The notes under the pieces are model-generated. The model was not told the origin of the DNA. It did no database searches and saw only the letters and a list, made by a program, of their open reading frames with translations. A DNA stretch of 64,000 nt, from positions 92,814,001 to 92,878,000 of the forward strand of contig OZ024747.1 in NCBI GenBank assembly GCA_964016885.1, written 5' to 3'. Positions 1 to 59,025 of the stretch are shown here, one piece after another; position 1 is the stretch's first letter; the number at the start of each line of letters is the position of its first letter. Both the position numbers and the translations under genes were made by a program. This stretch comes from Eledone cirrhosa. Lineage: Eukaryota.

Positions 1-564
1 GGACGGATCCGGCTATCATCTGAGTCCATCGTGAGGATTGCCGCGCCCTCCTCCTTTAGCCGGGAAGGGCAGGCAGTTTTTATCTGCCTGGTGGCGAAAG
101 AGATAGTATGGTGGACACGTTTGAAAGGGCTGAAGACGAGCACTTACCTCTTCGGTGATGCTCTGATTGACTTTTTCAAATTTCATTTGAAAAGGAAAAT
201 CAGAGTAGAGAGGGAAGTGCTCTCTTCCCAGCATTTTGTTGAAAGATGGGTGAGAGAAGCAAGAATGGCCCGAGTGAATGGGCCTACTCTGAGCATATAT
301 CTGTAAATTAAAGGTGGAAAACTGGGAGAGGGCACTTGCCTTGGTGGTCAGGGTCATTGTGGCTTTTTACTGGGCTCTCCACAAATGTCCCTCCGAAGTC
401 TCCCCCCTATTGGGGAATTTTTCATTGCTATTTTCATTGTTATTTTTGTTACATCCTCTGTTTTTGTTTTTTTACACGCAGAAATGCCCATTTGTACCGT
501 CCTGCATTGTCCTGCACTGTCCTTAATGTCTACTTCATGTAAACCCTTGTGGTTAATAAAGAAA

Positions 565-619: not shown

Positions 620-2593
620 TCTTGGTAAAGCAGAGTAACTACTGATGTAAAATGTCTAGCTTTTTAATTAAGGCTTTGAGGAAAATGTTGTGGATTAGTT
701 AACAGCATGTAACTAATTCCTCCATAAATGAAGTTGTTAGGTTAGAAGATGTATATATTTTTAAGTATTTGTCTTTTATTATGAAGTTGAAAGTTAATTA
801 TTTCCCTAAACCTATCATAATTCTTGATTATTTTGGTAATTAAAATACAAAAGTAGCAAATTCTAGTTACAATTATGGTCACAAAACAGTTAATGTTAGA
901 GCAGGAATTCAGTTGAACAAATTATTATTCTAATAAAAATGACCTTTCCCATTTATTAAGGTATGGGAGAATACACATGAAAGAGAAAAAGAAATTCTGT
1001 ATAAAGTATTGTTTATGGTGCATCATAGTGTGAGATGTGAGTAAATATGAAAGTTGGTGCCATAAAACTTAATGAAACTCTCACATTAAAAGAGATTATA
1101 CTTGACTTTTAATTTTTCAAGTAAATAATCAATACTTAAATATCATATTGAATAAATTACTTATTTTATCTGCAATCGGTTACAGAACACTGTAAATCTT
1201 TTAGAAAACAAATTGTATAACAACAGAATGCTTGTTCAGTTTTAAATTCTAAATTAACATCATTTTGCCAAAGGAAACTAATCGTCTAAATAAGTTTCTA
1301 TCAGTTCTTCTTTTAATGGTTAATTAAACTAACTTTGAAATACTAATTTTTTATTTCTATAATTTTTCCTTAAATTATTTTACTTTTTAAATTTTTAAGT
1401 AGTAAAAACATAACTTTTATTTCAACAACAAAACATGCAACCATATGTCTCAACACTATTCTATATAAACTTCTAACCATTTTAGCTTAATTAGTATTAT
1501 TCCTATTAATCTTACAGCTACTAACAAATGCATTAGTTAATGAATCTATCAACCAGCTTGACAGCCAAGATCAATGAACTTATTAAATTCATCTTCTGTG
1601 TATGAATATGTATTTGTACTGTATATGTGTTTATTCTTTTTGCACTGCAAGTTGATTGGTACAAGCATCATTCATCTTTCAAGTCAGCATAGAACATTCT
1701 TTCATATTCACACCACCCAACTTATGCCAACTAGCAACGTTTGTAATTTATTTTAACCAAATATATCTATATCCCCTTAGCCTTATACTAAAATTGGTGA
1801 AAACTAAATAAATAACATTACCAATTTCCATAAGCTACTAGTAGTTTAAGGATTAAGGGAACTATGAAGTAATAATAATAAAATCATGATTAATGAGTTG
1901 CTTAAATATATCCTTTGAAGTAGATGATCAGAGATCAACTGAAAATGCATTCCTACTATCTTGGGACATAAGAAGAGACACCTTGTTATCATATCCGATG
2001 ATTGCAAACTGAAGATATGTCAAAAAAAAGAAAGTCTTTAACAAGAAGATAAGAAATAACAACAGGATCAATGATTTGAAGACTTTGTAAGTCATTGACA
2101 AAGTTTTAAATATTATCCTCTCTGATCAATATTGATTTAGTGGTGTTTTGTGTAGTAATCTTTGGTACTGTCACAATTGCATTTATTGAAGATAAGACAG
2201 GTTGCTGCATTCAGAATTTATTAATGTTTGATCTGTCGATAGAAAAAAATAATGAATTATACATTTTATTCATTTCCAATTTAGAGCTAATTAAAGTATG
2301 GATATCTCTATGTAATTGAGAAATCTATTTTTTCTGAGATGAAGATAGCATCTGTCAAGGATCTTACTGACAGGGGAGGTTAAGTGGAGAGTCTAATGAA
2401 TTCTAAGACACTTTGCAGTCAGCAACAACCAAGGAGTAATATATAAGTCCAGTTAAGATAAAACCATAGTAACAGCAACAACAACAACAGCAAAAGAAAG
2501 TATAATCTTGAATTGAAAGCAAGACTAAAAATATGGTAATCAAGTAGATAATTGTAACTTTTGATTCAATTGAAAGTGTGGGTTACTAAAGGT

Positions 2594-2735
2594 GTTGTAT
2601 AGTGGTATTGTGTTGGAGAGGTGATGTAGTTGTGGTGTTGTGTTAGGGAGGTGGTGTAGTTGTGGTGTTGTGTTGGGAAGGTGGTGTAGTTGTGGTGTTG
2701 TGTAGGGGAGGTGGTGTTGTGTAGGGGAGGTGGTG
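2594..2735. repeat. ~30-bp GT-rich minisatellite, 4-5 copies
   Basis: Repeated unit GGTGGTGTAGTTGTGGTGTTGTGTTGGGA(A/G). Confidence 0.8.
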
Positions 2736-2814
2736 CTATATCATTCAATTGAGTTTCCACCTAAGGGTTAACATTTTAGAGTAATGTTAGAAAATATCAC
2801 AGACTTAAGGAAAT

Positions 2815-3072
2815 GATTGACAAGTTCCCAGACCTCATTCGCTAACCAAGTTGGGAATAAATTATCAAATCAGACCAAGGAACCAATGTTTCCATTGATC
2901 ATTCCATTAGTCTTTCCATTGCTGATACTATCTACCAGCTGAAACTCCTGGTAGAAGGAGCAACATGAAATAAAGTGTCTTGATCAAGGATGTAATGCAT
3001 TGCCTGGTCCAGGAATCAAACTCATAACCTCATGATTGCAAATCCAATTTTCTAACCAATAAGCCATGTGCT
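2815..3072 (-). mobile_element. tRNA-derived SINE (family B)
   Basis: The reverse complement has a CACATGGCTTATTGGTTAG A-box head and a B-box. It shares the 3' part CAATGGAAACATTG…GAATGAGGTCTGGGA with 21008-21250 and 56625-56857. Confidence 0.7.
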
Positions 3073-4975
3073 TTCATAGGTTTAAAGTATGCTTTGATAT
3101 TAATGAAAGCATCAAACTTTCCTTAATGTTGTTTTCAAATATGTGCTTACCAAAATACGTATGTCTGTGGTATATATGGATCCTAACATATAAAAGATAT
3201 CTCAACTTCTAGTAAATATTTGTGGTTTGCAACCATTGACAAAGTTAATTGTTTATTTATAACCCCATTGTAATTCTTACTTAATCGATGACATAGATGA
3301 TATACCTAAAATGTTGAGCTGTTATAAGAAACATAGAATCATTCCTGGCAGAAAGTAATATAAAGTTTAAGAATATAATGCTGACTTCGCTTGCATGAAA
3401 AATAAAATATTGCCTATTTTCAACTCAGTGTGACTACACAACTATACTGTGCCTGTTTATCTATAAATATAGGTAAATAATTTAGTGCATCTATGTATAT
3501 GTATGTACATGTATTCATACAATAACAGTAAAAATATATATATGCATGTGTGTGTGTGTATATATGTTTGTTTGCATGCATGCATCTGTGTGTTTTTACG
3601 TGGATGCTTTACACACTTAGGAATATGCTACGTGCATTTTTACTTATATCTACATATATATGTAATTTTTCTTTTGAAGGATGTAAAGAAGGGAAAAAAT
3701 GGTTTTCTAGTGCCATTCTTTCTTCTTCTTTTTTTTTTAAAGTACCCCATCCCCTGTAGTACTATCTTTTTCAATACATACAGTAATTTAACATTTACAT
3801 TTAATTAAGCTCATTGGACTTTTTATACCTCTTTTAGTGAAGATGTTTTAATAAGTCTATATTATGTCTGAAAGAATACTTTCTAAATGAAGTATTGTAA
3901 AGTTATTAAAAGTGAATAGAAGTTGATATTCTTTTATTTTGCATCTTTATACAGGAAACAACAAATTATATTTACTGAGTATTTTTTATGATAACATCAG
4001 AGGGGGAAAATAAGAATAACCTCATTTATTCATAAGAAAGTATGGATGTCTAAAACTGTAGTTAGAAAGTTACTTTGATTCATCACTTTTTTTTTCTAAG
4101 TTAAAACTACAAATGAAATATTAAAATAATATCTAAGCTTGTTAAATCATAAAAATAAACATACAAAATGTACAAATTTTAAAGAATTTTTTCCCATGTA
4201 TTTGACAAAGTGTAACACTTTGGATAAATTATTCAGGTTTTTATGAACAAGTAAAAAAAAAACAACAATAAAACAATATTGTTAATGTTGCAGCACAGAA
4301 TGTGTTAAACAATATTTCACTTCTTCAAATCCTTCTACACATCATATTCAACAAAGTAATAGTGTAAAAAAAAGAAGGATCATGATGACGACGACGATGA
4401 GTGTGTATGCAGGTAAAGCATACACATAAACACACACAGATGCATGCAAACAAACATATATACACACACACATGCACATATATATTTTTACTGTTATTGT
4501 ATGAATACATGTACATACATATACATAGATGCACTAAATTATTTACCTATATTTATAGATAAACAGGCACAGTATAGTTGTGTAGTCACACTGAGTTGAA
4601 AATAGGCAATATTTTATTTTTCATGCAAGCGAAGTCAGCATTATATTCTTAAACTTTATATTACTTTCTGCCAGGAATGATTCTATGTTTCTTATAACAG
4701 CTCAACATTTTAGGTATATCATCTATGTCATCGATTAAGTAAGAATTACAATGGGGTTATAAATAAACAATTAACTTTGTCAATAGTTGCAAACCACAAA
4801 TATTTACTAGAACTTGAGATATCTTTTATATGTTAGGATCCATATATACCACAGACATACGTATTTTGGTAAGCACATATTTGAAAACAACATTAAGGAA
4901 AGTTTGATGCTTTCATTAATATCAAAGCATACTTTAAACCTATGAAAGCACATGGCTTATTGGTTAAAAAATTGG
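3044..4975. repeat. Long inverted repeat: arms 3044-3612 and 4413-4975, ~800-bp spacer
   Basis: Read directly: the arms are reverse complements with few mismatches. ORFs 3485(+) and 4534(-) both begin MHLCICMYMYSYNNSKNIY. Confidence 0.95.
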
Positions 4976-10895: not shown

Positions 10896-12814
10896 AAAAT
10901 ATTGGTGGATGTAAAAACTTATAATGGGGCCCACAAGGTTAACACCAACTTTAGCAAAGAAAATGGCCTTAAAACGCTTGTTGCTGTTGTTGTTTTTTGT
11001 TGTTGTTTTTTTTCTACCCGCAGCCGCCTGAGGATTACCCTCAGTAGGGCTAGACTCACGTGTGGGAGACGCACGAGTTCATCCATGCTGGAGTCGAGTT
11101 GGTGGTGATAACAATCCACCATCAAGGCCGGACATCTCATCCAAAGATGTTCAGAGGATTCTTCTTCCTCTCCGCACAGACGGCATGTGTTGATTTCCGC
11201 TTGGCCGATCATATGGAGCCATCTCCTTAATGACGTGTGATGTCCACTGCGGAAGCGGACGAGATGGTTCCTATCTGCTTTGGAGAGAGTTTGCTCACTC
11301 TCTTTATTTGGGTGGCGGCTAAAGACTGAATGTAGGCGTTGATGCTGGATCGGTGGTGGGCGAAATTCCCAGCGAATGACGGCGCGTTGGGTGGCGGCAT
11401 CGATTGAACTTTCCAGTTGAGTAGATGCTGAGCTTTGTTTCGCCTGGGCGTCCGCCAGTTCTTTCCCTTTGATGTTGCAGTGCCCCGGGACCCAGACAGC
11501 TGCTAAGGTTCCTCCTTTGTGATTTTGTTAGCGATCCCTTGCAGCTCGGTAATGAAAGGGTTATGGGGGAAGGGGTTGTTGACTGCTTGAACCAGTGACT
11601 TGCAGTGACAGATGACATTGGAGGACTCCCAGCTGGTGTCTGCCTGCAACCATAGGAGGGCTTGTTTGAATGCAATTCTTTCGGAATGAAAGGAACTGCT
11701 ACGAGCCCCCGTCGGAGTGTGCCACTCGTGAACTACCTCTTCATTTTGGATGGTTACAAGATCGGCACCGCCATTGGTCGTACTGTCGCATGTTGATCCA
11801 TCTGTACACACGCAAATGTCGACCGGGGGAGTGTCGATAGATGATCCAGTGCTGCTTTAAGTTGTAGTGCTACTGGCATTGATTTGCTCACCAGGGTAAA
11901 GGTAGCAGGGATTGGTGGTTGTAATTCCCACGGCGGCTTCTTATGTGGTAGTTGGGTGTCTGTTGTCGAGGGTATGCCAAGACGATAAAAGGCTGGCAGC
12001 TGTCTACATCGCCAATCAAGACGGCGGAGTTGGCGCCTTACGTTAGCATTGAGTAATTGGTTTCGATGATCGGAGGTGGGGAGGTGTGCCCATTCATCCG
12101 CCTTCAAGGGGGAGAGAGCATGAAAGCGGCATTCCAACGGTGGAATGCTTCAAGTAGGACAGCCTCAGTTGATGTTGTGCGTACATGTCCAGTGATCGCT
12201 CAAGCTGCTTCTAGTCGTGCTCTTTCAAGCTTGCTGATGTTAGTGGCTGACAACCAGGGAGCCCAGCCTGGGGAGCCATACTCGGCCAGGCTTCGGTGCA
12301 CTGCGATGTATACTTGATGAAGATCTGCGGTATGCCAGCCCCAGGAGGTACCCTCAAGGGTGTGCAGGATGTTGACGTGCTGTTGAAGATTTTGGCAGAT
12401 GTTTTTAACATGTTCCCCAAAGGAGAGTGTCCTATCATATGTGACGCCCAAAAAGACGGGATTAGGGTTAAAGGACAGTCTTACCCCGTCAATAGTAATA
12501 TTTGGTTGCCACCTCGCTTCTGCACTGGATGTTCCAAAGAAGGTTGACTCGCATTTTGATGTGTTAAGTGGGAGTTTAACTTCTTTACTCCATGCTATCA
12601 CTTTATCCACTTCCTTTTGTAACCGTTGCGCTATTTCCTCCTTTTTCTTACCGCAGCACGCGATAGCAAGATCATCGGCGTATGTGCTGACATGTGTTGC
12701 AACCAGGAAATTCCTTTGGCTGCAAAATATTGGTGGATGTAAAAAATTATAATGGGGCCCACAAGGTTAACACTAACTTTAGCAAAGAAAATGGCCTTAA
12801 AATGCTTGCTGTTG
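10896..12814. repeat. ~85-90 bp direct repeats (10896-10980 and 12724-12814) flanking the I-group LINE
   Basis: AAAATATTGGTGGATGTAAAAA…GGCCTTAAAA(C/T)GCTTG is present at both ends with about 3 substitutions. Confidence 0.92.
10981..12723 (-). mobile_element. 5'-truncated I-group (Ingi/I/Nimb-like) LINE: RT C-terminus, RNase H, CCHC finger, (CAA)n/poly-A tail; frameshifted
   Basis: STYADD at ~12672-12690; FLGVTYDRTLSF and GTSWGW in ORF 12200-12610; RNase H CTDGS…SSSFHSERIA in 11503-11811; CRLCGEEEESSEHLWMRC in 10919-11212; tail at 10981-11013. Confidence 0.88.
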
Positions 12815-16981: not shown

Positions 16982-17492
16982 GCTTTTATATATATATGAG
17001 CAAGGCATGGTCAGCCGACCAGATACTGCACACAACAGGACAACCCGTCTAACCCATGCTAGCGTGGAAGAACGGACGTAAAACGGTGATGATGATGATG
17101 ATGATGATATATATATATGCTTTTTATCATGCCACCTACATGATCACTGTAATATATATACATATATATAGTAATAATTTATTTCGATAATCCGCGAAAA
17201 GCAGACAACAAACAGAACGTCTTCCTGTCTTCCTCCAGTTGCAACGTTGTTTGAAATATCCAGTTGTGCGTTTACAGATTGACTTTGTTAGTTTCAGAAG
17301 ATCTCGTTAAGGGTGAAAGCAGCGATTCTTTGCTTAAACTTTGCTTAAACTTTAATCTGTTATTTAATAAATATACATATATATATATACACACGACCGT
17401 GACTTCTGGCGTCACGCAGTAATACAGGGTACCCGACCTCCCATGGGTACATGCTGAAGCATATAAACAATATGCCCCCCCCCCCCCCCCCC

Positions 17493-17763
17493 ACCGCAAG
17501 GTGGTCGTGGAGGTGCCACGGCAAAAAAGCACCCAGCCCACACTGTAAAGTGGACGTGTAGGCGCCACGAAAAAGCACCCAGCACTAACTGTAAATGAGG
17601 TTGGTGTTAGGAAGGGCATCCAGCTGTAGAAATCAAGCCAGATCAGTTCCTGTATGAGCAAGGCATGGTCAGCCGACCAGACACTGCCCACAACAGGACA
17701 ACCCGTCTAACCCATGCTAGCGTGGAAGAACGGACGTAAAACGGTGATGATGATGATGATGAT
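17493..17763 (+). mobile_element. 3' half of an RTE-tailed SINE with (GAT)n tail; tail duplicated at 16995-17108
   Basis: GTTGGTGTTAGGAAGGGCATCCAGCTGTAGAAA…CCCATGCTAGCGTGGAAGAACGGACGTAAAACGG(TGA)n. Confidence 0.8.
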
Positions 17764-17767
17764 ATAT

Positions 17768-17959
17768 AGTTTTAATATAGATGAGATTCTACAGGACTAG
17801 AACTGTTTCATTCTTTAGAAATCAGGGATTCCTGATGATTTCTAAAGAATGAAACAGTTCTAGTCCTGTAGAATCTCATCTATATTAAAACTTTTATACT
17901 CTGCTATGTATTGAGTACCTTACTTACTGTGGTTACCTCCGATTCAACCCGGAATAACG

Positions 17960-17960
<1 letters not shown>
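17768..17960 (+). mobile_element. Penelope-like pseudo-LTR fragment with perfect 57-bp inverted arms (17768-17824 and 17836-17892)
   Basis: Perfect palindrome containing a hammerhead core. The downstream part 17895-17958 is homologous to the minus strand of 58930-58995. Confidence 0.75.
17825..17877 (+). ncRNA. Type I hammerhead ribozyme (core intact)
   Basis: Stem I GGGATTC/GAATCTC; CTGATGA at 17832-38; stem II TTC-TAAA-GAA; GAAA at 17851-54; stem III CAG-TTCTAGTC-CTG; cleavage triplet GTA ending at 17870. Confidence 0.8.
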
Positions 17961-18018
<58 letters not shown>

Positions 18019-18119
18019 AAATGGAAGTTCAGTAGAATCAAAGCCCTGGATGCGGCCATGTTAATGAATGCAATCCGGAATGTGCAGTTAAGCACTCAAT
18101 AAGGTAGTTTTACCTTAGA

Positions 18120-18313
18120 ATAATAACTGTTTCTACTTTAGGCACAAGGCCAGCAATTACCCAGTGCATTACTGGTACTTTATTTTATCGACCCCGTAAG
18201 GATGAAAGGCAAAGTCAACCTCGGCAGGATTTGAACTCAGATTGTAAAGGGACGTAACTATGCTGGAAAGCATGGCGTCCGACCCTCCACCGATACTGCC
18301 AATCCACCGCCCA
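18120..18313 (-). mobile_element. SINE family A
   Basis: Reverse complement of the family A head (GGGCGGTGGATTGGCAGTATCGGT) and core. Confidence 0.85.
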
Positions 18314-18809
18314 ATAATACCTTAGAATAATAACATTACGTTTAGGCAGCTTGACAAATTGAAGATTGTGACCGGTGAGCCAGCCGCAAGGACCAAAGCA
18401 ACGAGAAAACCAACTCAGGATAATTTGATAGTAAATGACAGCTATTTTTTTTTTAAGCTTTTGTTGTGTACTGTAAATTTGGATGTATATATAAAATATA
18501 TTAGTGTACTCCACCTACAGACGAAACTCCAGAGCAACAAGACTTTGGCCTGAAGTAGTGTATATTGTATACTATATATTTGGTTGACTCCATAGGTCAA
18601 TGTACAATTATTTGTGATTGATCCCATGTGTGTCATTTACATATAGTAGTGGAGGTGTGAACATAGGGAGAATATAATCTTCTATATAGATTGTCTCTTG
18701 TTAAAGTTTGATATGTCTTATTATACATTTATATTATTGGATATTTATGTGTATATATATATATGTCATTCACTATTTTATAATGATATATATATATATT
18801 ATATATATA

Positions 18810-19152
18810 GCAAAGGAAGTGTGGTAAGAAACCAGGTGGACCATAACGCACCAGAGTACTTAGGGTAGTATATATATTATGTGTGTGTGTGTGTGTGTGT
18901 ATTTACATGTATGCACACACTGTATTGCATATACCTAGTCTTACTTAACTCGTATATGGAATTACCCCTTGAAGAGTTCGGCTATATCAACACCACACTA
19001 AACATTTAATTTAGTCCAGAAATAGCTGTCGAGACAGCTTGAGCTCTGCCGTCGGGGTCCTGTCTCTTTTCCTATTACCCACTCTACTACCCAAAGTATC
19101 GAGTACTCTGGTGCATTATGGTCCACCTGGTTCCTTACCATACTTCCTTTGT
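18810..19152 (+). mobile_element. Penelope-like pseudo-LTR remnant with decayed hammerhead and an inverted terminal copy (18811-18861 vs 19101-19151)
   Basis: TTGAAGAG…GAAATAGCTGTC at 18969-19030. CAAAGGAAGTGTGGTAAG…AGAGTACT is mirrored, and the element sits in (TA)n. Confidence 0.6.
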
Positions 19153-20474
19153 TATATATATATATAATATATATATTAACATCTGGTAATGGTATTTTGT
19201 AATCTCTTTTTCTTTTCTTTTTAATATACATAACCTCTACAATTGTATATTTTCTTATGAAGTGATTCAAAGAATTATCTACAACGCTGAGTCAGCATTT
19301 TAGATTTAGAAAATTATTTTATTTATTGGAATAACATCAAACAATTAGCCACTGAAATAACTATAAATGACTATATTCTAATTAATTTCATCATCAATAG
19401 TTTGCATAAAAAGAATGTTAAATTTACCTTAAGAATTAAGAGATTGTTTATCAAGACTCATTTGTCATTATAAGCCTAATTATTGTCTATTTCCTTTATC
19501 AATTGCATTCAATCAGTTTTGCCTATTAATGATATTTTGTTTATTAGTGTTTATAGAGATTTTTGTTTTCAAGCTGAAATAGCTAAACAGCATTTAAAAA
19601 TAAAAGTATTCATTGGTTGTGGTTGATCATGTAAATTGTCAGAGTTGATTCTTTATGTATTTGACTGAGTAATTTTTATAAAATTTCATTGAATATTCTT
19701 CATCATCTTCTTTATGTTCTATTTTTTCTGCCTTTAAACCAAAAATTATTTTAATATGTGTTTATTTTTCTTTCATAATGATCAAGGACTTGTTCTCAAG
19801 CTGCTTTCTATACAAACATTATACACCAAATTTGATTTGTTTAATAGCATCGAAAACTCTTCACAATAATCTTAATTAGATTCATTTCAAGAAGAATTTC
19901 AGTTTTTTTCCCCAGATAAAGCAGTATGAGCTACAACATTAGCCATAATTTATTGTTCCTTTTGTCAGATTTTTAAAATCTTTTTGATTCTCTTTAGGTA
20001 TATATATATATGGATATTCTTTACTGAGTTTCTTTTGATATAATTATGTCAATTCTACAACGTTTTCTTTCTCTATTATGTCCTTTTTATTTTTTTTTTC
20101 CATTTTTTTTTTCTGTATCAATATGATTAAACATTGCAGCTTTCATTGCCAAGCAGTAGCTGGATTTCTCACAATTAATATCTTCCCTAACCCAGGTGAA
20201 AATACACAAGATAAGAATGAAGAGCTATAAAGTCTATCAATTAAATAATTGATACACTTCTTGAAAAGGAATGAAAAGCTCAGTTTAAACAAACTTATTT
20301 TAAAATGCTTTGAAAAATATATTATTAGTGTTTTACATTCAATTTCTTATTTATGTTGTATTATGATGTATTATTGCTAACAACTCTACACATAGTTCTT
20401 TAGATTTTCCTATTCCAAATTCCACCTCCAGTTCATCAGCTCCATTCACTATGCATTTGATAACTGATCCCTAA

Positions 20475-23846: not shown

Positions 23847-23902
<56 letters not shown>

Positions 23903-23949
23903 ATAACCTAGTTTCTAATATTAGTCGTAGGATCTCAACTCTATCAACA

Positions 23950-24900
23950 ACCAGAAAGATATTTGATAATGTTGCACTATACTACAACTGGGCCCTCAGC
24001 AGTTTTAGGACAAATTAAGTACACACCCAATCAACCTCAACCCAACCATACTAAAAATGTCAACAGAAAAAGAATAATTATCTGGTTCGCAGCCCACCTT
24101 TCACTTAACATAAAGACTAATGTCGGTAAGACGTTTTTAGATTTAATAGATAGACATTTCCTACTACAATATAGATACAGTAAAATCTTCAATTGTAATT
24201 CCGTCAAGATATCCTATTCATGTGGCCCGTCTATGAGATAAAAAATGACCACAAAAAATAAACCTGATGTAAATCCAAGTTGCTGTTGTAGGATTAAAGA
24301 GAACTGCCCTCTCCAACAGAAATGTAATATGAAATCCATTGCGTATGGAACAGAGATTACCCACAACACCACAGAAAACACTGAAGTTAGCAAACAATAC
24401 GTAATTTTACTCAAATTTCCACTCCTTCAGAAACCCTGATATAAGAACCCCCATGATCATGGCAAAATGAGTCTAGCAATTAAAGGAGAAAGGAGTCCCA
24501 CATAAGATTACTTGGAAGGTACTTAAAAGTTCCAGACCTTATACCAATGGTGCCAAGAGATGTCTCTACCTCAGTGAAAAATTCAGGATATTACAAGAGT
24601 CAACTGAAAAGTCCATAGGCTAACCAAGATAGTATCATGGAAAATATTCCACCTGAAAATAACTATTTAGAGCTACCAATCAGGAGGATCCTTCACCTCT
24701 ACACACCAGGAATCAGAAAAATATATCAGAAACATGTCCTTGACTATGTATAATTCTTCATCCTCAGCAAGTTTCTACCACCCAGCTGAAATTATACACT
24801 GCCCACTAGTGGGTGGTACCACTAAGGTTGATTTAAATTAGTAGCAGTTGAAAACTAGCCATGCTTCTTTCTTTCTCATTGTATTATTTTCAAAATGTAT
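23950..24900 (+). mobile_element. Decayed Penelope-like element: RT thumb, Cys-rich linker and GIY-YIG region
   Basis: RKRIIIWF…NIKTNVGKTFLDLIDRHF…KIFNCNSVKISYSC followed by CCCRIKENCPLQQKCNMKSIAY. Confidence 0.8.
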
Positions 24901-28610: not shown

Positions 28611-31385
28611 GTGATGGGGTTTTCAGCATTACTGGGTACAACCTTTTCCGCAAGGACCGCATTAATCGCTGTGGTGGTGGTGTGATGGTCTACGTTCGTT
28701 CAAACTTTTCGGTAATTCCTTGCATTGATTTGAACGAATCACAAGAAGAAGTTTTTTTTGTGACATACGTATGACCATGTCAACACTTCTGCTTGGTGTT
28801 GTTTATCGCCCCCCCAAACTACCATCAGGACACACAGCTTTGCGATATCCTCAGAGTTGCTGCCAAGAAAACAGCCACTTATGTGTTTATTGCAGGTGAC
28901 TTCAATCATCCTGAGATCGATTGGGAAACCTTTCATTGGTCACAAGGTGCAAACGATTTCCTTGAACTAGTGCTGGACTCAAACTGGTCACAAGTAGTCA
29001 CCTCTCCAACAAGAGGTGACAACACTTTGGACCTGATCTTCACCACTACTCCTGAAGTGGTTATCAGTTGTACTACTGAGGAACCTCTAGGCGAATCTGA
29101 TCATGCTATGATCATTGCCAATCTGGCTCTTGCGGGCAGCAACAAAAACCAGAGACATCTCCAATCTGCTTGCTTTGATTGGAAGAAAGCAAATTGGAAC
29201 TTGTACTGCACTGAGCTACAGCACCCAAACTGGCATGAGATGTATAACTTTGGAGATGTGAACACTATACTCCAGAGTATCCTGGACTCAATATGGATAG
29301 CGTGTGCAGCATCGGTGCCATGTAAGCAGAAAAAAAAATACCCCAAAAGTGCAATTTGGGAAACTTCAGTGGTCCGACTTGCCAGGAAAGAACGTCGGAA
29401 CGCTGAACGGGAATATAAACTGCATAAATCAGATGCCAACAGAAAAAAGCGGAATAAATCTTCTAACCATCTCAAGCAAGTGACAAAGAAGGCAGTGCTT
29501 GAATTTGAACAGTGCATAGCAACCAATCCTGACAGTAAAGTGTTCTGGAAATATGTTCATTCAAAGCAGAGCCCTCACTCTCCAGTTGGTCCTCTTCGCA
29601 ATCCCCACACAAGCCAGATCACTGACGATCCCAAAGAATGCGCAGAACTCATTGCTGAGTGCTATGCAAGTATTTTTACTGTTGAAAACCAGAATGTACC
29701 ATCTCCACCATCTCTAACATCAAATTCCATAACAACTATGGAATTTTGCGACGTCACCTTAAGAATAAGCGCAACTATGCCTCCCCTGGTCTTGATGGTG
29801 TTACATACCTGCTTCTCAAACGTGGCAGGTATTTCCTTTTGTGCCAGCTTTCTTTCTTCTTTCAATACTGTCTCAACAATGGTGCTACTCCGGAGCAGTG
29901 GAAAACTGCCAGTGTCATTCCCCTGTTCAAAAAGGGCAACCGCATGTCACCTGTCAACTATCGTCCAGTCAGTCTTACTAGCTGTATGGCCAAACTGATG
30001 GAATCCTGTGTCAGAGAAACACTTTGGAACTTCTGGAGCTCTCACAGCCTCATCCGGCCCTAACTTCAGCTGCTGTGATCAGCTTATCAAGTTCCTTGAA
30101 GACATCACCCGGATCACTGACAGCGGCTCATGGGTGGATGTTGTTTACCTTGACTTTGCTAAGGCTTTTAATTCTGTGCCACACAAAAGACTGATGGCAA
30201 AACTCTCTGTAATGGGTGTGAGGGATGATCTTTTCGACTGGTTGAAATCCTTCATTCTCAGCCGAAAAGAGGTAGTCTCGGTTCTAGGACAGCATTCTTC
30301 ACCATATGAGATGTTATCTGGTGTACCACAGGGATCTGTTCTTGGTCCCCTTTTGTTTGTGGCATATATTAATGACATAGATGCCAACTTACAGAATGCC
30401 ACGGTACTGAAATATGCAGATGACATCAAGCTATACCTTGAAATCAAAAGGACTGATCCTGAAATCTACAACTCCTTCCTACAATCAGACCTGGACACAA
30501 TGCAGCAATGGATCACAGACTGGCAACTGAAGCTGGCTGTGGACAAGTGTACCACCATGCATTTTGGGAGGAAAAATCCAGCATCAACATACTCCCTCCA
30601 CAACACTGATATCAAGAAGTCCTCTTGTGAATGTGACCTGGGCATTACTGTCAGCAGCGATTTGCATTGGACAAAGTATGTCTCTAAGATTGTCAAGAAG
30701 GCGGAGGGTGTCTTGGCATCACTCAGCAAGACCTTTGTTAGCCGCTCTCCAGCCATCTATTTAAAACTGTATACAGCTATGGTACGACCACACTTGGAAT
30801 TCGCATCATCAGTCTGGAACCCCTATCTTGCTCAGAACATTGACCGCCTGGAAACTGTTCAGAGACATGCAACCAAGCACATACCCTCCATCAGACACCT
30901 ACCAGACTCTGAACGCCTTGCTTCCCTGGGCATGGATTCATTGAAGCTCCGACGTCTGGCAATGGACTTGGTAAATACCCACAAAGTTATTAACCATCTC
31001 ACCAACAACAACCCTGAGCACCTTTTTGATCTCCATGTGTCTAACACACGTGGACATGCCTACAAAATCAGAAAACAGCACAGCTCCCATGACTTTCGTA
31101 GACATTTTTTCACACTAAGAGTTGCTGAAGCATGGAACAAACTGCCTGCGTCAGTTGTTAGCTGTCGAGACACTGCATCCTTTAAGACACTCATGCTTCC
31201 CGAAATACGCCAAAACTACACCTGATGTACCCCTTCCATACACATGTACACATGTGTGTATCATGACTCATGCACTGTTCATTTTCCTGACGTTTGTACA
31301 TTACCCTATGTACTATACATACACTTTTTGATGAGTTGTAGTGCACCTGAGCACTGTACACAATATTTCATTATTATTATTATTA
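28611..31385 (+). mobile_element. CR1-clade LINE ORF2 (APE endonuclease + RT), 5'-truncated, with frameshifts and small deletions; (ATT)n tail
   Basis: APE motifs GYNLFRKDR…GGGV, GDFNHP, TRGDNTLDL and SDH; RT motifs YRPVSLTS, YLDFAKAFNSVPH, GVPQGSVLGPLLF and YADD; CR1-type end TRGH…FFTLRVAEAWNKLP. Inserted in (TA/TG)n. Confidence 0.93.
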
Positions 31386-40539: not shown

Positions 40540-41505
40540 TAATAATTGTTTCTATTTCTGGTACAAGGCCAGCAATTATCCCAGTGTATTACTGGTACTT
40601 TATTTTATCGACCCCGTAAGGATGAAAGGCAAAGTTAACCTGGGCGGGATTTGAACTCAGCCATAAAGGGCCGTAGCTTTTTGCTGCAAAGCATGGAATC
40701 CGACCCTCTACCGATACTGCCAATCCACCGCCCTAAAAACATCAGATTAATAATGGTTTCTGATTTAGGTATATGGCCAACAATTTTGGATGAGAAGAAA
40801 GTCGATTAAATAGACCCCAATGCATTACTGGTACATTATTTTAATGACCCTATAAGGATAAAAGGCAAAGTTAACCTTGGCAGGATTTGGACTCAGAACA
40901 TAAAGGGACATAACTCTATATTTCAAAGCATGTTGTCCGTCGTTCTACCAATACTATCAATCCACCAGCTTAATAATTGTTTCTGATTAAGGCACAAGGT
41001 CAACAATTTTAGGGGAGTTTTAGAAAGTTGATTAAACCAACCCCAGTGCATTACTGGTACTTTATTTTATCGATCCTATTAGGATGAAAAGCAAAGCTAA
41101 CTTCAGTGGGATTTGAACTCAGAATATAGAAAGTCGTAACTCTATGCCACGAAGTAGGGTGTCCAATACTCTACCGATACTGCCAATCCACCACCCTTTC
41201 CACCAGCTTAATAAGGATTTCTAGTATAGGCACAAGGCCAGTAATTTAGGGGGGAGGGGAAAGTCGATTAAATCGACCCCAGTACATTACTGGTACTTTA
41301 TTTTATCGACCCTGTAAGGATGAAAGGCAAAGTTATCCTCGGCAGGATTTGAACTCAGACCATAAAGGACCGTAACTCTGTGCTGCAAAGCATGGTGTCC
41401 GACGCTCTACCGACACTGCCAATCCACCACCCTTTCCACCAGTTTAATAATTGTTTCTACTTTTGGCACAAGGCCAGCAATTACCCAGTGTATTACTGGT
41501 ACTTT
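40540..41505 (-). mobile_element. Head-to-tail array of four full and one partial family A SINEs
   Basis: Units start at ~40540, 40749, 40970, 41209 and 41445. The four full units each have the core and end in CAATCCACC. Confidence 0.9.
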
Positions 41506-49776: not shown

Positions 49777-51581
49777 AGTTGCATTTATCTTGCTTTATGT
49801 TCATATGAGTTATCACCAAGTCACAACCCGTGACCTCAAGAGACAACAAGGTCTGCCATGTTCAACATACACACACATGCATCTTTAGGTGTTTAGACTT
49901 GTGATGTACTTATATTGACAGAAGCTTCCTTAGTATATGGGCAGTTCCCATTAGTACTATCTTTTGTATTTCTCCTATACGCGGGTTTCCTGGGATTTGA
50001 GATAAGTAATCATTAGACCCCTTAGGTATCATTCCTAGAGCGCCTACAACCACTGGTATTGTTTTAGTTCTCAATTTCCACATTTTTCCAATTTCTATCT
50101 CCAGGTCCTTATACTTGCTCAATTTTTCAAATGTTTTTATAGATACATTCTTGTCTATTGGAACGGACATATCAATTAGCAGGCATACCCTCTTTTTAAA
50201 GTCCTTCAGTATTATATCAGGTCTATTTGTATCTATTTTTCGGTCTGTTTGGATGCTAAACTTCTACAAGATTGAGATGTGATCTTTTTCAAGTATGGGA
50301 GGTGGTTGATGCTCCCACCAATTCTTTTGATGGGGCAGGTCAAAATGCTTACACATTATCCAATGTATGTATTGTACAGCTCTGTCATGCCTGTTTAGGT
50401 ATTCGGTTGGAGCTATAGGACTGCACATTGAAATTATATGGTCAATGGTCTCTGGTTGTTTTTTGAACACATGGCATAATGGGCTCCATCCATTTTTTAT
50501 TATGTTGGCTTGGTAATTTTTTGTTGGCAGACACTGATCTTGTGCTGATATAATCAGTCCTTCAGTCTCCGATTTCAGTCCAGAGGATGCCAACCGCTGG
50601 TGGGTTAAAGTTTTGTCAACATCAGGATTGTTAGCTCGCTCTAGGTATTTTCCATACAGAGGCTTTTCTTGCCATTTCTTAGCCAGTTTCTGTAGCAGTT
50701 CTTTCTTTGCAGTTACTTTTACCTGCTTTGCTTTTTCTGTGTTTTCCATTTCAGCAGTAAATGGGACTTCTGAAATTTGTAGTCCATTACTGTATCTTTG
50801 TGCATCTTTTGTAATGGAATATGATCTTTTGATGCTTTCGTGTTTCAAAACGAGTTTGATCATCCAATCATGTGATTCCCTTAGATATGTAGATAATCCA
50901 ATTGTTGCAGTTTTCAACGCAATGTCTAACTGGACTAACCCACGTCCTCCTTCTTTCCTAGGGAGATATATTCTATCTATATCTGCCTTAGGGTGATGCA
51001 TTCTGTGCATGGTTAAGAATTTTCGAATTTTTGTATCAAGCCTACGGATCTCTGTGCTTGACCAGTTGATGACATTGTAACTGTAGGTTACTACTGGTAT
51101 GGCAAGCGTGTTTATGGCATCGATCCTATTCCTTGCATTCAATTCCGTTCTTAAGATTGCTCTTACTCTGCGGTAACATTCCTTCCTTATCCTTTCCCTC
51201 ATTGTCGAGTGCTTGATTTCGTCTCCTTCACAAACACCTAGATATTTGTAAGTTTTTTCTTGATCAAGTTCTCTTATCACGTTCCCCCGATCAAGATTAA
51301 TGTCTGAACTCTTCAGCAGCTTTCCTCTGGTGAACGTTGCTTTGGCGCATTTATCTAGTCCAAACTCCATTTTAATGTCATCACTGAACTGCTCCACAGT
51401 GGATAATAGCCCGTGCAATTGTTCATCATTTTTTGCAAATAGTTTCAGGTCATCCATGTAGAACAAGTGATTAATGGTTTTGTCATAGACTCTATATCCA
51501 TGTTTTGTTTCATTGAGCATTTTACTTAATGGTATAAGTGCGATGCAGAATAAAAGCGGTGATAAAGAGTCACCCTGAAAA
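49777..51581 (-). mobile_element. Dong/R4-clade non-LTR retrotransposon, copy 1 (RT, CCHC, restriction-like endonuclease), 5'-truncated
   Basis: FQGDSLSPLLF, HLFYMDDLKLF, YKYLG, RKEGGRGL, ETIDHIISMC…RHD and NRPDII…IDMSVP…KLSKY. There is a premature TAG at 50264 where copy 2 has W. Flanked by (TAA)n. Confidence 0.92.
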
Positions 51582-51624
51582 ATTCTTCTTATTATTCTTC
51601 TTATTCTTCTTATTCTTCTTATTC

Positions 51625-51680
<56 letters not shown>

Positions 51681-51682
<2 letters not shown>

Positions 51683-52630
51683 AGTTGCATTTATCTTGCT
51701 TTATGTTCATACGAGTTATCACCAAGTCACAACCAGTGACCTCAAGAGACAACAAGGTCCGCCATGTTCAAGAAAGAACATACATATTCACACATGCATC
51801 TTTAGTGTTTAGACTTGTGATGTACTTATATTGACAGAATCTTCCTTAGTATATGGGCAGTTCCCATTAGTACTATCTTTTGTATTTCTCCTATACGCGG
51901 GTTTCCTGGGATTTGCGATAAGTAATCATTAGACCCCTTAGGTATCATTCCCAGAGCGCCTACAACCACTGGTATTGTTTTAGTTCTCAATTTCCACATT
52001 TTTCCAATTTCTATCTCCAGGTCCTTATACTTGCTCAATTTTTCAAATGTTTTTATAGATACATTCTTGTCTATTGGAACAGACATATCAATTAGCAGGC
52101 ATACCCTCTTTTGAGTCTTTCAATATTATATCAGGTCTGTTTGCATCTATTTTTCGGTCTGTTTGGATGCTAAAGTTCCACAAGATTGAGATGTGATCTT
52201 TTTCAAGTATGGGAGGTGGTTGATGCTCCCACCAATTCTTTTGATGGGGCAGGTCAAAATGCTTACACATTATCCAATGTATGTATTGTGCAGCTCTGTC
52301 ATGCCTGTTTAGGTATTCGGTTGGAGCTATAGGACTGCACATTGAAATTATATGATCAATGGTCTCTGGTTGTTATTTACATTCACGGCATAATGGGCTG
52401 CACCCATTTTTTATTATGTTGGCTTGGTAATTTTTTGTTGGCAGACACTGATCTTGTGCTTATATAATCAGTCCTTCAGTCTCCGATTTCAGTCCAGAGG
52501 ATGCCAACTGCTGGTGGGTTAAAGTTTTGTCAACATCAGGATTGTTAGCTCGCTCTGGGTATTTTCCATGCAGAGGCTTTTCTTGCCATTTCTTAGCCAG
52601 TTTCTGTAGCAGTTCTTTCTTTGCAGTTAC
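51681..52630 (-). mobile_element. Dong/R4-clade element, copy 2 (more truncated)
   Basis: Near-identical to 49777-50715, with (TAA)n on both sides. Confidence 0.92.
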
Positions 52631-54655: not shown

Positions 54656-56624
54656 TGAGAAGGAAGAAGAGGAGGGATGAGAGATGTATGACACCAACGT
54701 TGATGATATAAGTTAGTTTGTTTTATTTTATAATGTTCATTATTATTATACAATATAATAAAATTATGTCAATATTGCTAATTGCCTTCATTGTCTTTCC
54801 AATATTATGACATATTTCTCTCAAGTTTTCATATCATGTTTGCATATTTAACAATTAAACTTAATCTGTTACCCTGTCATATTTCATGCTCTTTCAACAA
54901 TTTAACAGCTTCCTTTTGATGTTAAAGTCTTTTATAGTAAAACGATGAGAGGATTTTCTTTGTAAAAAGAATTGAATTTTGCAAAATATCAATGCAGTAC
55001 CCAACACTGTGAACCTTACTTATTAATGGATATAAAGAGAAACCCCAATGTATACATTAGCTTGATTTTTTGTTGTTTCATGTCTTCATATTTTTTTCCA
55101 GCTTTAACATTTAAAAGAGATATATTGACTGCAGGATGTAGTCAATATATCAAATGTGGCAATACTTAACCAATTTATTATTGATCAACTCATTATTCAA
55201 TATACAAGAAAAGTTAGGACAAAGACAGTTTTGCAAACTTTCTCAACTTATGCCATCATACAAAATATAAATTTAAAATACAAACAATGATGATTTTCCT
55301 TGTTTTGTTTTGTTTTGTTTTGTTTTGTTTTGTTTTGTTTTGTTTGTATCAATTATATTTGCAAAGAATTTCCCTCATAATTATCTTTTTATATGAGCTA
55401 TAAATTTTATATACCCTTACTTATATCAACACGCTTATATCAATGTTTATATATCAATGTACATATATCAACATACTTAAAGCAACATATTTATATTAAT
55501 GTACAAACTTCCAGCCATAGACAAGTTGGATTGCCCCTTCATTAAATTACTCTTACTTTATCTTTGATTGATTCTAGTACAAAAGTTTTAATAAAATTGT
55601 TCTACAATTGTAGTCAAAAGTCATCATTTCAATATGGCTGTCTCAGAGAAGCAAGTTAAAAGAGTTTTGGATAGCATACAAAAATCTGATTTAAAAAATG
55701 TATAAGCATGGTGTATCGAACACTGCATTTACAACAAAGAAAGGAAGATTGAGGCAGATGTCAAATTGAGTGTGTAATAATCCTTATGATTATAGGGTTA
55801 TGGTAGAAACATTTAATATCTATCTCAGAAAATATATGTTTTCCAAACATCACTTGTTATTTTCTATTAGAATAGAATGTATTTTAGTTATGACTGTATC
55901 CTAACAATGCTTATTTTGTGGTTGATTTTCTATTTATACAAAGATATTAATGCATCTGTTTCTTTCTATTTATAGCCAATATATAATTACCTTCACAAAG
56001 CAGCTTCTATAGATTATGATGTCTTAGATTTCTAGTATGTTTCATAAATACTATAGCATTAAGACTTGTTACTGGTACTATAGTATCTAATAAGGTTAGC
56101 CTGGTGTTCCATCAAGGTCTAACTTGATATTCTAATATAAAATTGTGCATTAAGTAGCTGAAGTAAACATTAAATTTATACCTGTACTTATATATTACAA
56201 AGTTTAACTGAGACTGCATAAATGTGTACAGGTATATCTCACCTTATGTTGTTAATTGGTTCCGAAAAACAATGAATGTCAAATTAACCCAACTATAAAT
56301 CATTAATGTGGAGGCACGTGGCCTAGTGGTCAGGGTGTTGGACTTACAATCATAATATCATGGGTTCGATTCCTGTATTGGGTTGCATCTTGTGTTCTTG
56401 AACAGTTAAACAGTTAAACTGTGCGCTATATAAATCTGATATTATGCATTTGATTCAATAATTTTAATAAACTCTTGTGTTCGACAATGTATATTGTATA
56501 TATTACTTTTATGAGTATATTATATGCACTAATGACTTAGCTATGAATGTTATTGCTCTTAATTTAGAAATAAAGTTTAACAGTCCAAAACCAAACACAC
56601 ACACAGACATATACATATATGATG

Positions 56625-58373: not shown

Positions 58374-58710
58374 AGGCACATGGCTTAGTGGTTAGAGCAT
58401 TGGCCTTGCAATCGAAAGGTTGTGAGTTCAATTCTCAGACTGGGTGATGATTTGTTTCCTTGAGCAAGACACTTTATTTCACATTGCTCCAGTTTACTCA
58501 GCTGTAGAAATGAGATGATAGGGACTGGGGGTCCTTATCATTCCACTGCAAAGTGGTCGTGGAGGTGCCACGGCAAAAAAGCACCCAGCACTCACTGTAA
58601 ATGAGGTTGGTGTTAGGAAGGGCATCCAGCTGTAGAAATCAAGCCAGAATCAGTTCCCGTCCCACCCTTGCAAGCAGGGAAAAAGCGGACGTAAAATGAA
58701 ATGATGATGA
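58372..58710 (+). mobile_element. tRNA-derived SINE with RTE-type 3' tail
   Basis: A/B boxes, CCTTGAGCAAGACACTT, GGAAGGGCATCCAGCTG and CGGACGTAAAA(TGA)n. Confidence 0.85.
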
Positions 58711-59025
58711 AATGATGTTGAAGTTGTAGTTGCAGTATAGCAGTCACAAAGCATTCAATGGTGCGAAAAGTTAATATATTTTCGTCCAGAGTAAACAGAA
58801 AGTTAAGAAAGAGTGACACCATGACTGGCATGACCCAGTGTAGGTGGCCATAGTTTATATAACTACAACAACAATAAATACAAACAGGTTGTATATATAT
58901 ATAAATATATACATGTGTGTGTGTATGAGTGTATCCCAGATTCAATCAGGGGTAACTACAGTAAGTAAGGTACTCAATACATAGTAGAGTATATACAATT
59001 ATATATATATATATATATATATATA

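Follow-up and report, generated by a model that had tools for sequence, protein, structure and literature searches.

Hairpin copies of a Penelope-like element in Eledone cirrhosa that end at the first bases of a hammerhead ribozyme motif

The window analyzed here is a stretch of 64,000 nucleotides of Eledone cirrhosa DNA (assembly GCA_964016885.1, contig OZ024747.1, positions 92,814,001 to 92,878,000 of the forward strand), and positions below are those of the window unless another copy is named. An insertion of approximately 190 bp lies in it between two TA runs. The left insertion site is a short TA run (17762..17767) where a repeat that recurs at 16995-17105 (family D5, 111 nt, 98%) ends in (GAT)n, and the right one is a (TA)n run (17960..18017). 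The insertion begins with a second copy of the hammerhead region, inverted and without a tail, on the minus strand (17768..17826), which lacks 3 nt of an ATC repeat that most copies have. On the plus strand it is followed by the first native bases GATTC, at -5 to -1 before the catalytic core, in the 5' strand of stem I (17827..17831); by the core, stem II and GAAA (17832..17854); by stem III and the GUA triplet (17855..17870); by the 3' strand of stem I and the pseudo-LTR end (17871..17892); and by a 68-nt tail identical to the lead-in to the open reading frame (ORF) of full copies (17893..17960). Positions 17768-17824 are 100% complementary to 17836-17892, forming a 57-bp perfect inverted repeat of which the hammerhead is the right arm. 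From 17827 onward, 142 of 144 bases of the window copy agree with those of a native copy (L033). The upstream TATA region is missing from the window copy, which carries no promoter.

The hammerhead motif itself spans 17825..17877 on the plus strand. The 5' strand of stem I, as read in the window copy, is GGGATTC (17825-17831) and is followed by the catalytic core CTGATGA (17832-17838), stem II with a U-U pair and then TTC/GAA closing a TAAA loop (17839-17850), and GAAA (17851-17854). Stem III consists of CAG (17855-17857) and CTG (17866-17868) around the 8-nt loop TTCTAGTC (17858-17865), which holds CUAG. TA, the last bases of the GUA triplet (17869-17870), and the 3' strand of stem I, GAATCTC (17871-17877), complete the motif. 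All parts named in the original prediction were found in place by reading the sequence, with the triplet ending at A17870, after which the cut is predicted. CUGANGA, GAAA and NUH are present in type I order; with the native match L033 and the full element described below, this arrangement bears out the proposed class, and the motif is, on its sequence, almost certainly the type I hammerhead of a Penelope-like pseudo-LTR. A stem I of 7 bp with one G-U had also been described. This pairing is present, but the native stem is 6 bp (AGATTC/GAATCT); because G17825 and G17826 derive from the junction with the inverted arm, two of the stem I pairs are junction-made and the 7-bp stem is partly accidental. 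Hammerheads of the Hydra clade usually carry such a U-U at the foot of stem II, and many of their rows in file S2 of PMC8557442 read ctgatgat...tgaa.

Comparison with Rfam, which had been proposed as a check, failed to recover the motif: no hammerhead reached the gathering score in the whole 64-kb window, and the 40 matches obtained at E ≤ 10 in 17500-18200 included no hammerhead, with miRNA-like hairpins present below threshold only. The isolated 53-mer folded no better than its shuffles (z -0.10). Pairing of two copies through stem and loop III, also raised in the original prediction, was favorable, as two 16-mers cofolded at -12.8 kcal/mol compared with -1.4 kcal/mol for the single hairpin.

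The inverted repeat folds at -92.9 kcal/mol (z -18). Forcing the hammerhead fold with the left arm present was predicted to cost +63.5 kcal/mol, compared with +4.2-5.7 kcal/mol in native contexts, because RNA entering from the left includes the complementary arm. According to these fold models, the hairpin arm likely blocks the window motif from folding as a hammerhead, and the window copy is probably inactive as a ribozyme. Self-cutting of this copy in a plus-strand transcript had been anticipated, with the weak stem II as the main caveat. The lost TATA region and the uphill fold argue against the former, and the hairpin, not stem II, is the main obstacle.

The motif is abundant in the genome. 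Its 35-mer had 12,882 exact matches on both strands, whereas the reversed control had 0, which answers the question of copy number posed with the original prediction; 4,670 of the matches kept the native upstream sequence. A chance motif was ruled out by these counts together with the covariation in stem I reported below. A full copy (L063) contains, in order, a hammerhead, the tail, an open frame of 758 codons, a 3' region rich in microsatellites, and, ~6 kb from the first, another hammerhead that lacks the tail. Its single ORF encodes a reverse transcriptase (RT) followed by a C-terminal GIY-YIG domain, with the motifs DKT, YRDD (RT), CxCx5C, YIG (GIY-YIG), CxxC..E, and CxH. Pfam analysis of this protein gave a weak GIY-YIG match only (E value, 0.019) and no RT, and PF01541 was detected on some homologues. 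There were 1,199 homologues among 8,000 candidates scored, with ~40% identity for most of those listed. The position of the RWK motif reads RWR in L063; among 120 homologues, 84 had RWK and 31 had RWR. A TA/TG microsatellite of ~3 kb lies in the 3' region of L063 (~1330-4350 of that copy), so that the element spreads its own target sequence.

The family has a Hydra-like layout, with (TA)n insertion, a pseudo-LTR hammerhead, an inverted 5' copy, and a one-sided tail, and the motif set of L063 matches the marks of the Hydra clade (PMC8557442). Judged by these motifs, the parent appears to be a Hydra-clade-like Penelope element. The parts of PMC8557442 covered here describe a clade, including Hydra-1_Obim, that shares with it the single ORF with RT and C-terminal GIY-YIG, DKT, CxCx5C, the CxxC and CxH around E and N, the (TA)n target, the pseudo-LTR hammerhead, the inverted 5'-truncated copy, and the tail at one end only. 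The octopus family Hydra-1_Obim differs from the window family in hammerhead sequence (PMC8557442 supplement). The window family is also larger (~6 kb with a ~3-kb microsatellite 3' region, vs. under 3 kb), has a longer tail (68 nt vs. 30-40 nt), carries RWR in place of RWK, and has a loop III of 8 nt (PMC8557442). It is thus a new family of a known kind; hammerheads in pseudo-LTRs, inverted 5' copies, tails, and palindromic junctions are already in print. A retrozyme-like array of the same family was observed at G000:C1 ~83,679,800-83,691,700 (part in L201), where twelve head-to-tail units of ~1.08 kb each consist of the 3' region, TATA, hammerhead, tail, and a TA run. Judging from this arrangement, dimer cleavage could be possible within the array.

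Older subfamilies were represented by 12,697 matches to a pattern with stem I AGCTTC/GAAGCT or GGCTTC/GAAGCC and a freely variable loop II. Among 13 hand-picked, related variants, both sides of stem I had changed at 2 of 6 pairs between subfamilies, whereas stems II and III were paired without any double change; the covariation looked for was thus present in stem I only. Across the same hand-picked, related variants, 98.8% of cells were paired, and 0 of 500 shuffles scored as high. Common motif variants in the contigs of four public runs affected loop II and a covarying stem I base, and no common core variant was present among the matches listed from those contigs. These sequence patterns suggest that the hammerhead structure is maintained by selection in the source elements only, where cleavage is predicted.

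The 5' ends of short copies were determined for the first 100 of 7,497 tail matches (exact 34-mer), taken from the first 65 Mb of one contig. The 5' reach was defined as the furthest point of either arm, counted from the C of CUGAUGA. It lay at -8..-3 in 41 copies and at -2..+5 in 13, with 14 copies reaching beyond -400, 19 ending at -399..-13, two at -12..-9, six at 6..37, one at 38..42, and four beyond 42. An inverted arm was present in 59 of the 100 copies, and the tail-less arms ended within the stretch matching 17871..17892 (54/59 at positions 54-61). Arms starting at the pseudo-LTR end, at the tail end, or slightly inside the ORF share one stop position; therefore, the stop is set by place and not by distance. 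Genome-wide, fold-backs within 24 nt of the core gave 5,812 strand matches (~2,900 loci), compared with 35 loci near the cut site, for which the gap width differed from that of the core-centered count. Non-inverted stops at the same base were few (80 matches to one pattern).

In 38 of 46 rows, a TATA sequence, TATAAATA, was located 31 nt upstream of the A that opens stem I; a spacing of 30-34 nt covers 44 of 46, and single outliers lie at 25 nt and 38 nt. Because most of these rows belong to one subfamily and TATA was a requirement of the search, they do not amount to 46 independent tests. Several subfamilies with different spacer sequences keep the TATA box at its usual distance upstream of the stop. 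The stop site reads CCAGATT, which we take to fit the initiator pattern YYANWYY. By contrast with the TATA boxes of this family, the D. virilis Penelope promoter is described as TATA-less in the part of that report consulted (PMC2377424). Positions 17827..17831 are the 5' stop hot spot and, on this sequence evidence, the likely RNA start.

Comparison of the two arms was informative about how the hairpins arose. Among the 59 arm pairs, 35 variant positions were mirrored on both arms, and 39 changes affected one arm, mostly as singletons; 19 distinct junctions were found among 23. The mirrored subfamily variants, the private one-arm changes, and the differing junctions together suggest that the hairpins were made anew from one template. 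Junction spacers were 2 nt or shorter in 9 of 23 cases, and both arms reached at least 5 nt in 9 of 23. An extra G at the junctions, a possible sign of a cap, was indistinguishable from the GG of the other arm.

Longer copies showed a different distribution of 5' ends. All 87 copies running from the tail into the ORF were collected, comprising 52 with at least 1 kb of ORF and 35 with shorter continuations. The 52 long copies ended past -13 (41 copies), at -12..-9 (one), at 6..37 (two), at +40 (two), and beyond 42 (six), and none ended at -8..+5. Of the 35 shorter continuations, six stopped in -8..-3 and five in -2..+5. Stops at -8..-3 thus occurred in 41 of 97 tail-ended copies but in 0 of 52 long copies (Fisher p 8e-10), some of the latter possibly being duplicates of each other.

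We consider it probable, taking the chain as a whole, that the short hairpins derive from run-off cDNA of uncut RNA ending at stem I, joined head to head into an inert product. The first base of the element's RNA would be the A or G with which stem I opens. On (TA)n DNA that has been nicked, RT would begin at tail ends, close to the 5' end of the uncut transcript, and would run off the RNA 5' end at the first bases of stem I after ~65 or 130 nt. The run-off product would then be joined head to head with a second copy, the inverted arm arising anew at each insertion through snap-back or through priming on both target strands. The resulting hairpin would keep a copy such as that in the window from folding as a ribozyme, leaving an inert by-product. 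For a Penelope element of Anolis, cDNA was reported to start at tail ends in vitro, with both strands extended and uncut RNA used (PMC11167929). Core-centered fold-backs outnumber those near the cut site, counted with their different gap width, which speaks for an uncut template, in agreement with the unprocessed RNA substrate of that report. Two other templates were rejected. Hammerhead-cut RNA as the usual template does not fit the 35 loci near the cut site, nearly all of which retain bases 5' of the cut. A spliced template was considered since TTTTTTGATACCCAG resembles a splice acceptor and since helix I is where the intron of D. virilis ends (PMC4209133, in the part covered); it was dismissed because the 23 junctions hold no constant extra exon sequence and an older copy (L220) reads TCGG there.

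Other explanations of the stop and of the hairpins were weighed against run-off from uncut RNA. The stop at stem I might instead result from a block that acts only early in synthesis, which would fit the passage of the long copies through the stop site, or from self-priming on an antisense template, as has been proposed for head-to-head palindromes (PMC3846280, in the part covered). Against these stand the TATA boxes, placed at the usual distance in several subfamilies with different spacers, and the expectation that, with its partner strand already copied, the 5' strand of stem I would no longer be paired. No cause was seen for an antisense 3' end at the stop base. We regard both as improbable. 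Still less likely is a ~190-bp hairpin that forms a non-autonomous family of its own (MITE- or retrozyme-like) and spreads as a unit. The search for the ~190-bp unit gave 627 candidate copies, of which all 40 scored covered nearly the full 199 bp with 97-100% identity, and TA-run placement was seen in all 30 copies inspected. That search, however, selected for the junction of the window copy, and unselected copies have many junctions. Moreover, the one-arm changes are mostly private, and the short copies, which are scattered and not arranged in tandem, have no TATA region.

We likewise find it very hard to credit active ribozyme cleavage of host or read-through RNA by the window copy after A17870. 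Neither its core nor its triplet is damaged, and an RNA that starts at 17825 could form 7 stem I pairs. However, the 57-bp complementary arm lies upstream and opposes the fold by ~63 kcal/mol in our models, there is no promoter within the copy, and the 119 plus 13 open frames of the window contain no non-transposon Pfam domain. Minimal Penelope hammerheads were found to cut poorly even as dimers (PMC4209133), and the Anolis hammerhead needed the element's protein (PMC11167929), as far as the parts of these reports covered here go. Dimer cleavage by small Penelope hammerheads was described by Lunse et al., according to the summary in a review (PMC6765202).

With run-off from uncut RNA as the preferred origin of the short hairpins, a single linear RNA species is insufficient because 0 of 52 long copies stop at the site. 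A linear RNA from the pseudo-LTR promoter, a tandem read-through from it, or an equal-failure template jump would be expected to leave -5 stops in long copies. A circle, host read-through, or a block on the first pass only would leave none. It is possible, although we put this forward tentatively, that two templates are used, with linear uncut RNA giving the short hairpins and a unit-length, ribozyme-made RNA circle giving the ORF-bearing copies. Such a circle might come, should this still doubtful route operate, from hammerhead cleavage in both pseudo-LTRs and ligation, which would give a template with no 5' end. A circular template for Penelope elements has already been proposed (PMC4209133, in the part covered). 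The use of two templates predicts the contrast in stops between short and long copies, the upstream extension of 41 of 52 long copies, and the 2 of 52 near the cut. If true, it would assign a definite function to the ribozyme and account for partial tandems; the part of PMC8557442 covered calls the role of Penelope hammerheads unclear and gives no defined origin for the tandem and inverted ends. Two of the 52 long ORF-bearing copies (L235 and L294) start at +40, a single base away from the predicted cut. Their starts may be taken as a weak hint of cleavage in vivo.

Minus-strand strong-stop DNA of LTR retroelements is produced by internal priming near the 5' end and run-off, and twin priming of L1 produces an inversion at insertion. 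Both are analogies only, as Penelope has no tRNA primer or integrase and both arms copy the same stretch. The Poseidon element PAc of Anolis resembles the present family in tail-end cDNA starts, in cutting and extension of both target strands, in an AT-rich target, and in an uncut RNA substrate, but it belongs to another clade and its ORF starts inside the hammerhead (PMC11167929). The parts of that report covered contain no account of genomic 5' ends or of short versus long copies, and the parts of PMC8557442 covered describe no 5' stop at stem I in Hydra. Metazoan non-LTR retrozymes are likewise small non-coding units derived from pseudo-LTRs with a type I hammerhead; they are head-to-tail tandems that give RNA circles, whereas the window copy is a single head-to-head hairpin (PMC7229834; bioRxiv 10.64898/2026.07.22.740005, in the parts covered). 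The window holds no head-to-tail tandem units of it, and a retrozyme identity was therefore not upheld.

The single locus is ordinary, being one among thousands of truncated Penelope ends. Thousands of young copies, however, form a base-level map of cDNA stops: short copies end where the ribozyme begins, none of the 52 long copies does, and stops at the cut site are rare. This map turns the circular-template idea (PMC4209133, in the part covered) into a test with named positions. The stop position and the contrast between short and long copies are the part that goes beyond the published descriptions found: a search of titles and the beginnings of abstracts in the openly accessible literature gave no prior description of a stop at the first base of a hammerhead or of such a difference between short and long copies. 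Transcription of the thousands of ~60-bp hairpins, should it occur, could supply double-stranded RNA against the element.

A search built for hairpins of this type, which provides no denominator, returned 24 strand matches at 14 loci, 12 of them with unrelated hammerheads. Hairpins centered a few bases 5' of the core were observed in at least five unrelated hammerhead families (L315-L338), with a TA run on one side in most. This suggests that the hairpin-at-core pattern is wider than the present family.

Further repeats were found in the window. A 62-bp tail fragment of the same Penelope family, 87% identical, lies on the minus strand at 58932-58993. Another TA-flanked inverted pair (18786-18860 and 19102-19176; 75 nt, 89%) is possibly the end of a different Penelope-like family, and a decayed frame at 23902-24593, 30-44% identical to P0001, represents a distant Hydra-like element. 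Broken LINE-type frames with RT, APE endonuclease, or RNase H-like domains occur at 10919-12766, 28775-31225, and 50264-51700. Weak tRNA matches at 56319-56376 and 58379-58442 are likely SINE heads, and a 236-bp repeat is present in three degenerate tandem copies at 40743-41482.
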